Source: Bacteroidota bacterium (GTDB taxonomy: Bacteria > Bacteroidota > Bacteroidia > Palsa-965). Taken from it: a DNA stretch of 63,516 nt. This document shows positions 17,709 through 18,200 of the stretch, piece after piece. The notes below the pieces were generated by a model that searched no databases, was not told the origin of the DNA, and was given only the letters and a program-made list of their open reading frames with translations. Both the position numbers and the translations under genes were made by a program. Position 1 is the first letter of the stretch; each line of letters opens with the position of its first letter. Location of the stretch: the NCBI GenBank assembly GCA_021299855.1, contig JAJTEY010000010.1, positions 1 to 63,516 on the forward strand, given 5' to 3'.

Positions 17709-18200
17709 ATGTTGCTTACGCTCGAACATCATCAGCAATTGTTGCAGGCTCGTTTGAGAATGCAAGGTGATACAAATCATCACATGGAACACGTTGTAGA
17801 ACGTAACGGTGTAGTCTGGTTGAATCATTCTATTGCCACAAGTTTCGAGATGGTTGCCATTGCGCTGAAGGATATTCCTCAAAACGTAGTGGTGATTCTG
17901 GGCGGTGTTGATCGATTCAATGAACACCATGTATTTGCACCGGCATTTCATGGCAAAGTAACGGGCTTGGTTTGTTTGGGTTCAACAAGAGACAGATATT
18001 TTAAGGCCTTTGGACAGGTAGTGCCTTTGATTGTTTCTGCGAACTCGCTTGCCGAAGCGGTGCAGCTTGCCGACAAGATGGTAATGCGGGATACGCAGTG
18101 TGTCTTGTTCGCTCCGGGGTGTCCGAGCTATGATGCTTTTGATAATTACAAGAATAGAGGTGATGAATTTAAACGCGTAGTAAAAGCTGCGCTTATTTAG
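17709..18200 (+). CDS. stand-alone diverged paralog of the MurD C-terminal (Mur_ligase_C) domain
   Basis: 163 aa; the ATG begins 1 nt after the murD stop. It aligns along its whole length to MurD residues from about 300 to the end: [112 protein letters not shown]. Confidence 0.75.
   Translation: [163 protein letters not shown]

Follow-up and report, generated by a model that had tools for sequence, protein, structure and literature searches.

A predicted free-standing copy of the MurD C-terminal domain between murD and ftsW in a clade of uncultured Bacteroidia

The division and cell wall (dcw) cluster is among the most conserved of bacterial gene arrangements, and one of its enzymes, MurD, has long been a target for antibiotics and depends, in its catalytic cycle, on the opening and closing of its C-terminal domain. 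A regulatory paralog of an enzyme is known in HisZ, which is related to HisRS and regulates HisG. The C-terminal domain of MurD (domain 3) comprises residues 299–437 (PMC9780078, PMC3527612). Its ADP contacts are Arg302 and Asp317, and its D-glutamate (D-Glu) contacts are Thr321, Lys348, Ser415, Leu416, and Phe422, with Lys348 contacting the α-carboxylate; Lys319 figures in the same paper as an inhibitor-docking contact only (PMC9780078). Natural chimeras and complexes of Mur proteins have been reported, including MurE-MurF, MurD-FtsW, and MurC-Ddl (Shirakawa et al. 2023, PMC10214165). Here we describe an extra open reading frame (ORF), at positions 17709–18200, that separates murD from ftsW in a 63,516-nucleotide stretch of DNA (the window) from a Bacteroidota bacterium (assembly GCA_021299855.1, contig JAJTEY010000010.1). 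We call this ORF and its family of homologs X. It is almost certainly a diverged, free-standing copy of MurD domain 3 and a functional gene. We found in the literature no described stand-alone MurD C-domain protein and no extra gene at this dcw position; what is new is a known domain in a free-standing, noncatalytic, clade-conserved configuration, and the family is undescribed.

X is like MurD domain 3 in its fold (template-modeling [TM] score ~0.75, root-mean-square deviation [rmsd] 2.2 Å), in its colinear sequence, and in being encoded within dcw. It is unlike it in being a separate polypeptide of 152–184 aa without N-terminal or central domains, in lacking Arg302, and in carrying Arg at the Lys348 position or a basic residue shifted by one. 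From the MurD enzyme family as a whole it departs in architecture, in falling below the score cut-off, and in its nucleotide contacts. A Mur-ligase fold without ligase chemistry is also seen in chain Q of 8r6s and 8ras (ranks 44 and 46 in our Foldseek search), which we take to be the MurE-like/PAP11 subunit of plastid-encoded RNA polymerase; unlike X, that chain is eukaryotic, longer, MurE-derived, and part of a transcription complex, and no specific relationship is implied. The likeness to HisZ is one of concept, both being truncated, noncatalytic enzyme paralogs that are under purifying selection and encoded with their pathway, and the two share no sequence or structural relationship. With the natural Mur chimeras (PMC10214165) X has in common a gene-order-linked coupling of dcw proteins that involves the murD/ftsW junction, and it differs from them in being unfused, with stop codons and frame changes on both sides.

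The relationship of X to domain 3 is clear from alignment. Residues 24–160 of the window protein align with residues 309–444 of the adjacent MurD at 50 of 137 positions identical (36%) with a single gap (BLASTP, E=2e-28), and the murD profile TIGR01087 matches X over profile positions 298–440 of 441 only (E=3.6e-31). The profile score of 108.7 bits lies below the full-MurD cut-off of 211.95, so that X is not assigned as a MurD equivalog. X has no Pfam match to Mur_ligase_M, MurD_N, or MurD-like_N. Pfam Mur_ligase_C (PF02875; gathering threshold 28.4 bits) also finds nothing in the window protein, even at E≤1; PF02875 matches are on record for several of its relatives. Reading the negative Pfam scan as a refutation of homology was considered and set aside, as TIGR01087, BLASTP, and the fold concur. 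An initial annotation of the window, made from its letters alone, had placed the ORF exactly, including its 1-nt junction with murD, and its claim of colinearity with the MurD C-terminal domain is borne out by the pairwise alignment that it proposed; the Mur_ligase_C profile search that it also proposed is misleadingly negative.

An AlphaFold2 model of X built from 19 family sequences has a predicted local distance difference test (pLDDT) score of 85.1 and a predicted TM score of 0.81. When the model was compared with the PDB by Foldseek, the 33 best matches were MurD domain 3 entries or chains (E from 6e-10 to 5e-7), with TMq values of 0.67–0.77 (0.72–0.77 for the best) and rmsd of ~2.2–3 Å; weaker matches to MurF, MurE, and FPGS followed. 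Model and matches both give X the fold of a Mur ligase domain 3. A profile search of PDB sequences with the X family returned full-length MurD only, and no free-standing version among these has been solved. X begins at the last helix ahead of the domain 2/3 linker. The window MurD matches all four of its Pfam domains, including MurD_N, Mur_ligase_M, and Mur_ligase_C (the last at 56.4 bits). Since this adjacent MurD is complete with a canonical C-domain of its own, a split murD that lost its C-terminus does not account for X.

The arrangement recurs widely. A word-indexed search with X returned 18 proteins, all of 163–178 aa and 36%–98% identical to it, and in every locus context fetched the short gene sits between a full-length murD and ftsW. 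The contexts inspected were L001 (an NCBI Bacteroidia metagenome-assembled genome [MAG], 47% identity), L002, L003–L005 (including a 154-kb contig), and L006. Scanning the two strongest motifs of the family over one genome per GTDB species gave 80 further loci (L007–L086), all in MAGs of uncultured Bacteroidota, whose source habitats were lakes, soils, groundwater, sludge, and glacier streams; these search patterns are found in X only, the co-resident MurDs reading LLSPACASF...NYEDRG. The carriers are classified no more finely than as uncultured Bacteroidia or Bacteroidota and may belong to the orders NS11-12g and AKYH767. In the 86 loci classified, X is intact in 82 (152–184 aa), cut by a contig end in two, and split across two frames in two. 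Identity among the intact proteins falls to ~30%. A profile of 76 X sequences matches 610 protein clusters at E≤1e-10. The best 120 of these 610 are all 152–181 aa long, and those among them that carry a name are called “hypothetical protein” or, wrongly, “murD” or “UDP-N-acetylmuramoylalanine--D-glutamate ligase.” No cultured organism appears among the best 120 of the 610 X clusters or the 120 closest MurD relatives. An exhaustive profile search cannot delimit the family, as short proteins are intermixed with the C-termini of full-length MurDs at scores below ~160 bits. Four longer profile matches (P0029, P0066, P0028, and P0086) were rejected as members and are fragments or chimeras of genuine MurD. 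X is thus a clade-wide, old gene family, not a peculiarity of the window genome.

An assembly chimera, a split murD, or an annotation error could produce such a gene in a single genome, and the window sequence probably does come from a MAG or metagenome contig; murD is in fact broken by N runs or frameshifts in L002 and L006. The upstream MurD of the window is complete, however, and the arrangement has been seen in more than 85 independent assemblies from various studies and platforms, including contigs of 0.3–0.7 Mb, which leaves an artifact with a negligible probability. Two kinds of irregularity were noted among the loci. In L002 (JGI 3300000156 NODE_c0744659) short N runs split murE, mraY, murD, ftsW, and murG into several calls each, and these account for an odd context with two “Mur_ligase_C-only” ORFs, one of which is the tail of murE. 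The two-frame splits of X are in L055 and L081 (~4440–4925). The first could be a genuine pseudogene. L081 belongs to a “tig”-named (long-read-style) assembly, and in its sister assembly L083, which the same study produced, it is ftsW that is split across two frames; this suggests a frameshift-prone assembly series, and a sequencing error is plausible for L081.

A tree (neighbor-joining on BLOSUM distances, as are all trees here) of 81 X sequences, the C-domains of the 81 MurDs encoded beside them, and 46 further MurD C-termini places 80 of the 81 X in one clade that excludes every true MurD domain, with the remaining sequence (L039) a long branch at its base. The single clade argues for one old duplication and against repeated local copying. 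X is shown to have a single origin, a partial tandem duplication of murD that took place in the founder of an uncultured Bacteroidia clade, and to have kept its slot since. When pairs of X are compared with the corresponding pairs of MurD C-domains, the amino-acid distances correlate closely (r=0.918). The nonsynonymous rate (dN) of X is ~3-fold that of its MurD counterpart. Among the 71 pairs of genomes in which synonymous divergence (dS) is unsaturated, the median dN/dS (Nei-Gojobori pairwise counts, not codon models) is 0.043 for X, with a maximum of 0.18, versus 0.031 for the MurD C-domain; compared with its closest relatives, within its own species group, the window X gives ratios of 0.18 (L003), 0.11 (L007), and 0.08 (L008). 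These data point to a functional, protein-coding gene under strong purifying selection and inherited vertically.

A decaying remnant of a tandem murD duplication would also lie beside its parent as a partial copy and evolve faster than the parental domain, as X does, and one lineage has deleted the gene and two loci have it frameshifted. A pseudogene would be expected to show dN/dS near 1, frequent disruption, and a sporadic distribution, and X shows none of these. Its ratio is far below 1, it is intact in 82 of the 86 loci, 21 of its positions are at least 97% conserved, the best 120 of its 610 clusters are similar in length, and one of the two frameshifts is plausibly a sequencing error; we therefore regard decay as highly improbable. 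The initial annotation had argued on the strength of the open frame and the tight coupling that the ORF was a domain-only paralog rather than a decaying duplicate, and had proposed surveying related genomes for an ORF in this slot and estimating dN/dS. The survey and the ratios both bear it out, at the level of sequence.

How far X extends was judged from an unbiased sample of metagenome loci, chosen by their MurD at 75% down to 40% identity to the window MurD. Nine of the ten closest loci with usable downstream sequence (MurD identity 68%–75%) have X; at 65% identity or less, L104 is the sole carrier. A tree of 141 full-length MurDs unites the carriers in one clade of 82 loci with X and three without, and the remaining 56 noncarrier loci all fall outside it. 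None of these 56 has a MurD-like gene between murD and ftsW (a weak lead in L109 apart), in agreement with the initial claim that murD is normally followed directly by ftsW. Where X is absent the murD-ftsW spacer is usually 5–200 nt, with five longer spacers of 472–1,214 nt. In a nearby outgroup (L090/L091) the order is ftsI-murE-mraY-murD-ftsW-murG, with a 10-nt murD-ftsW spacer; two other outgroup look-ups (P0105 and P0111) yielded a short contig and a non-dcw context. One noncarrier, L095 (JGI24806J26614_1000760, 3835–3986), is nested among the carriers. There an AT-rich, noncoding spacer of ~150 nt replaces the ~530-nt X, and the end of murD and the start of ftsW align with those of its relatives, so this is a clean deletion; L095 could act as a natural knockout for comparative work. 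The history of X reads as one gain followed by rare loss.

Other material was seen in this slot outside the carriers. L109 (JYMV01003524.1), which lies outside the clade, has a different ORF of 165 aa there (2749–3232), which resembles the X family weakly but colinearly (E ~1e-3 in hmmsearch; in hhalign, a probability of 24% and E=8e-4 over 119 columns). It has none of the X pocket motifs and may be a far more diverged relative or an unrelated insertion. A 147-aa ORF between murD and ftsW in L106 (Ga0079223_10000017, 3832–4305) is unrelated to X (hhalign probability 0.2%). In two loci from a fermentation metagenome (L114:3844–4364 and L115:3844–4385) the ~520–540-nt spacer is a degenerate tandem repeat, with (S/N)FGKLIG-like heptads in one frame and PEAxNEF-like repeats on the other strand, and holds no convincing gene. 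In Bacteroidota, small genes may repeatedly insert between murD and ftsW.

We used 76 distinct X sequences and their 76 co-resident MurDs, in E. coli MurD mature-protein numbering, to ask which residues have been kept (the E. coli sequence is identical to that of the PDB chains, and its numbering reproduces the literature residues). In the co-resident MurDs the equivalents of R302, D317, K319, T321, and K348 are invariant (76/76). In X the Arg302 position is never Arg (0/76; S33, H20, N10, C5, Q5, A3). The second ADP contact, Asp317, is D50, H22, and N4, the window having His. The Lys319 position, presumably with a role in ATP binding or closure, is K42, I16, M12, and R4, the window having Ile. 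By its nucleotide contacts, then, X does not group with MurD. The initial annotation had singled out the change of NDSKATN to NHSIATS, which is present in the window protein (residues 39–45) and proves to be a subfamily trait, as 42 of the 76 keep the Lys and 50 keep the Asp; the universal loss is that of Arg302. It had also held that the ORF cannot be a ligase by itself. That claim stands: without a UDP-MurNAc-binding domain, a P-loop/ATP-grasp central domain, or Arg302, X alone is shown by its predicted architecture to be unable to ligate.

Much of the pocket and cleft face is kept. His301, Glu304, Asn316, Ser318, Gly344, Asp347, Ser415, Asn421, Tyr422, Arg425, and Gly426 are invariant in X (76/76), Gly345 is near-invariant, and F419 is also kept. 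Among the contacts proper, the Thr321 position is T62 and I13, and the Lys348 position is R33, L26, S7, M4, and K2, with a Lys or Arg at 348 or 349 in 74 of the 76; the Leu416 position is Tyr or Phe in X, and the co-resident MurDs have Phe there as well. At four positions in or next to the D-Glu loop, X and MurD are each fixed for a different residue (L409F, A414P, E423K, and D424N). Twenty of the 21 positions at least 97% conserved in X lie in four ligand- or cleft-facing segments that make up 39% of the domain. Mean conservation of the D-Glu loop (407–429) is 0.88 in X compared to 0.93 in MurD, and it ranges over 0.47–0.73 in the rest of X; the remaining helices and strands are at 0.47–0.50 in X versus 0.78–0.89 in MurD. 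There are just two positions at which X is under tighter constraint than MurD. The alignments show selection to be preserving the surface by which MurD holds D-Glu and closes onto its central domain.

Catalytic loss combined with purifying selection is what is expected of a noncatalytic paralog, and X displays both. It most likely binds a ligand and, without catalyzing anything itself, assists or regulates the MurD step. The initial annotation had suggested that it could be a regulator, a decoy, or an interaction module. In such a scheme X would be made with MurD and FtsW from one transcript and co-translated with them; it would bind D-Glu, or the D-Glu end of the MurD product, in its retained and remodeled pocket; it would dock by the pocket face on open-state MurD; and it would tune flux through the MurD step without catalysis of its own. 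We put the probability of the full explanation, a selected and vertically inherited gene together with a MurD-tuning mechanism, at roughly 0.55. The specific mechanism, in which pocket ligand binding and docking on open MurD would tune D-Glu addition, is more tentative and falls well short of even odds.

Several points weigh against this explanation. All of its support is drawn from sequence. The conserved loops may simply be needed for the fold, since they are invariant in MurD too. Lys348 is kept in just two of the 76 X, and Thr321 is Ile in 13 of them. E423K and D424N alter the charge beside the pocket, and the ligand may therefore not be D-Glu. The tethered C-domain of MurD should out-compete a free copy for docking, and a stoichiometric, co-translated inhibitor would be an odd design. 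On the side of distribution, L007–L086 were found through X’s own motifs and so prove recurrence, not prevalence; few loci within the clade were chosen by their MurD (11 with X, three without); and the deletion in L095 means that X is not strictly essential.

The fixed substitutions at L409, A414, E423, and D424, the replaced or shifted Lys348, and the very strong constraint on the pocket loop could also be taken to mean that X is an alternative substrate domain, which replaces the MurD C-domain in trans or serves a ligase without a C-domain and so gives an unusual residue at stem position 2. The family-wide loss of Arg302, with the loss of D317 and K319 in the window subfamily, argues that X would not close productively on a central domain carrying ATP, and the free domain would have to compete with the tethered one. 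Nor was a ligase without a C-domain found in the window or in any of the loci, which were the scope of that search. This alternative appears very unlikely. A broader speculation has X as a trans-acting decoy or sensor that would bind D-Glu or the MurD product and cap open MurD or bridge it to FtsW, coupling precursor synthesis to septal glycan polymerization; its radical version would have X re-specify the amino acid at stem position 2. We consider it doubtful. If true, it would represent a regulatory layer in dcw without a described counterpart, spread across an uncultured Bacteroidia clade.

The main rival to a ligand-binding accessory of MurD is a scaffold or adaptor, in which X would have no small-molecule role and would be an interaction module joining the soluble Mur ligases to the membrane steps; it might, for instance, hold MurD or the complex of Mur proteins close to FtsW, MurG, or MraY where the cell divides. 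The position of X between murD and ftsW and its tight coupling to both would fit it, natural MurD-FtsW chimeras and Mur-Mur complexes have been reported (PMC10214165), and chain Q of the plastid RNA polymerase (8r6s_Q and 8ras_Q, weak Foldseek matches) provides a case of a Mur-ligase fold as a nonenzymatic subunit. The strongest constraint, however, falls on the ligand pocket and cleft loops and not on a new surface, which fits an adaptor less well, and the cytoplasmic N-terminus of the window FtsW is very short. We regard an adaptor as rather unlikely.

The features of the locus are collected in Table 1. The window region is a dcw cluster of the Bacteroidota type, in the order ftsI-murE-mraY-murD-X-ftsW-murG-murC-ftsQ-like-ftsA; L003, a near-identical contig, extends it with mraZ, rsmH, and ftsL upstream and ftsZ downstream. 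The murD, X, and ftsW genes occupy three different frames separated by stop codons, and there is no fused reading frame of the MurD-FtsW type. In 32 of 81 loci the murD-X spacer is 1–2 nt, and it is mostly below 25 nt (range −1 to 134 nt); such short spacers would be consistent with translational coupling. Since spacer length and frame differ among loci, a MurD-X fusion made by programmed frameshift or readthrough was considered and ruled out. The base composition and codon usage of X are like those of its neighbors (GC content 0.45 versus 0.40–0.44 for comparison). Promoter and terminator scans inside the operon gave no signal above chance, and an Rfam scan of the window matched nothing.

Table 1. 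Positions of X, its motifs, and the surrounding dcw genes in the window
Feature	Position	Strand	Description
ftsI	11497–13626		
murE	13623–15086		
mraY	15091–16368		
murD	16370–17707	+	445 aa, full-length, canonical; TIGR01087 408.7 bits over profile positions 2–440
murD segment for its own C-terminal (D-Glu-binding) domain	17270–17704	+	Residues 301–445; colinear with X
murD stop/X start junction	17705–17711	+	TAA-T-ATG, 1-nt spacer; TAA at 17705–17707
X	17709–18200	+	163 aa, ATG start; free-standing MurD domain 3 paralog (almost certain)
X N-terminal helix, residues 2–19	17712–17765	+	Last MurD central-domain helix before the linker; variable in the family; AlphaFold2 pLDDT 58–65
H-H-M-E motif, residues 24–27	17778–17789	+	MurD H301-R302-x-E304; His and Glu invariant, Arg replaced
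NHSIATS, residues 39–45	17823–17843	+	MurD N316-D317-S318-K319-A-T321-N (NDSKATN)
GGVDR, residues 65–69	17901–17915	+	MurD GGxDK348 loop; D-Glu Lys replaced by Arg
D-Glu γ-carboxylate loop, residues 133–151	18105–18161	+	MurD 408–426 (S415, L416, F422); most conserved part of X
X stop/ftsW start junction	18198–18205	+	TAG-AA-ATG, 2-nt spacer; TAG at 18198–18200
ftsW	18203–19384	+	393 aa; PF01098 FTSW_RODA_SPOVE on the 97%-identical L003 ortholog

Three further observations concern the downstream genes of the window. The listed murG ORF (387 aa) begins at a GTG and overlaps ftsW by 65 nt (19320–19384); in the 97%-identical L003, murG is called at 372 aa, and the true start is probably a downstream codon. 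A 276-aa ORF in the ftsQ position (21855–22685) shares 34 nt with the end of murC. No Pfam family is on record for its identical-length orthologs in L003 and L001, and FtsQ/POTRA goes unrecognized in them. FtsZ is long (24067–26151, 694 aa; 697–728 aa in L003 and L001), and its orthologs have Tubulin and FtsZ_C domains on record, which implies an extended linker or tail.

The restriction of X to uncultured lineages limits immediate experimental access to it. Pfam is blind to some of its members, and with the labels “hypothetical” and “murD” the MAGs that carry it seem to have two murD genes, so that metabolic reconstructions based on MAGs miscount the family. X would offer a natural, soluble, stand-alone domain 3 for studies of D-Glu recognition and of domain closure. 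A domain-only gene that has been under selection across a whole clade suggests an unrecognized accessory or regulatory layer in peptidoglycan precursor synthesis.

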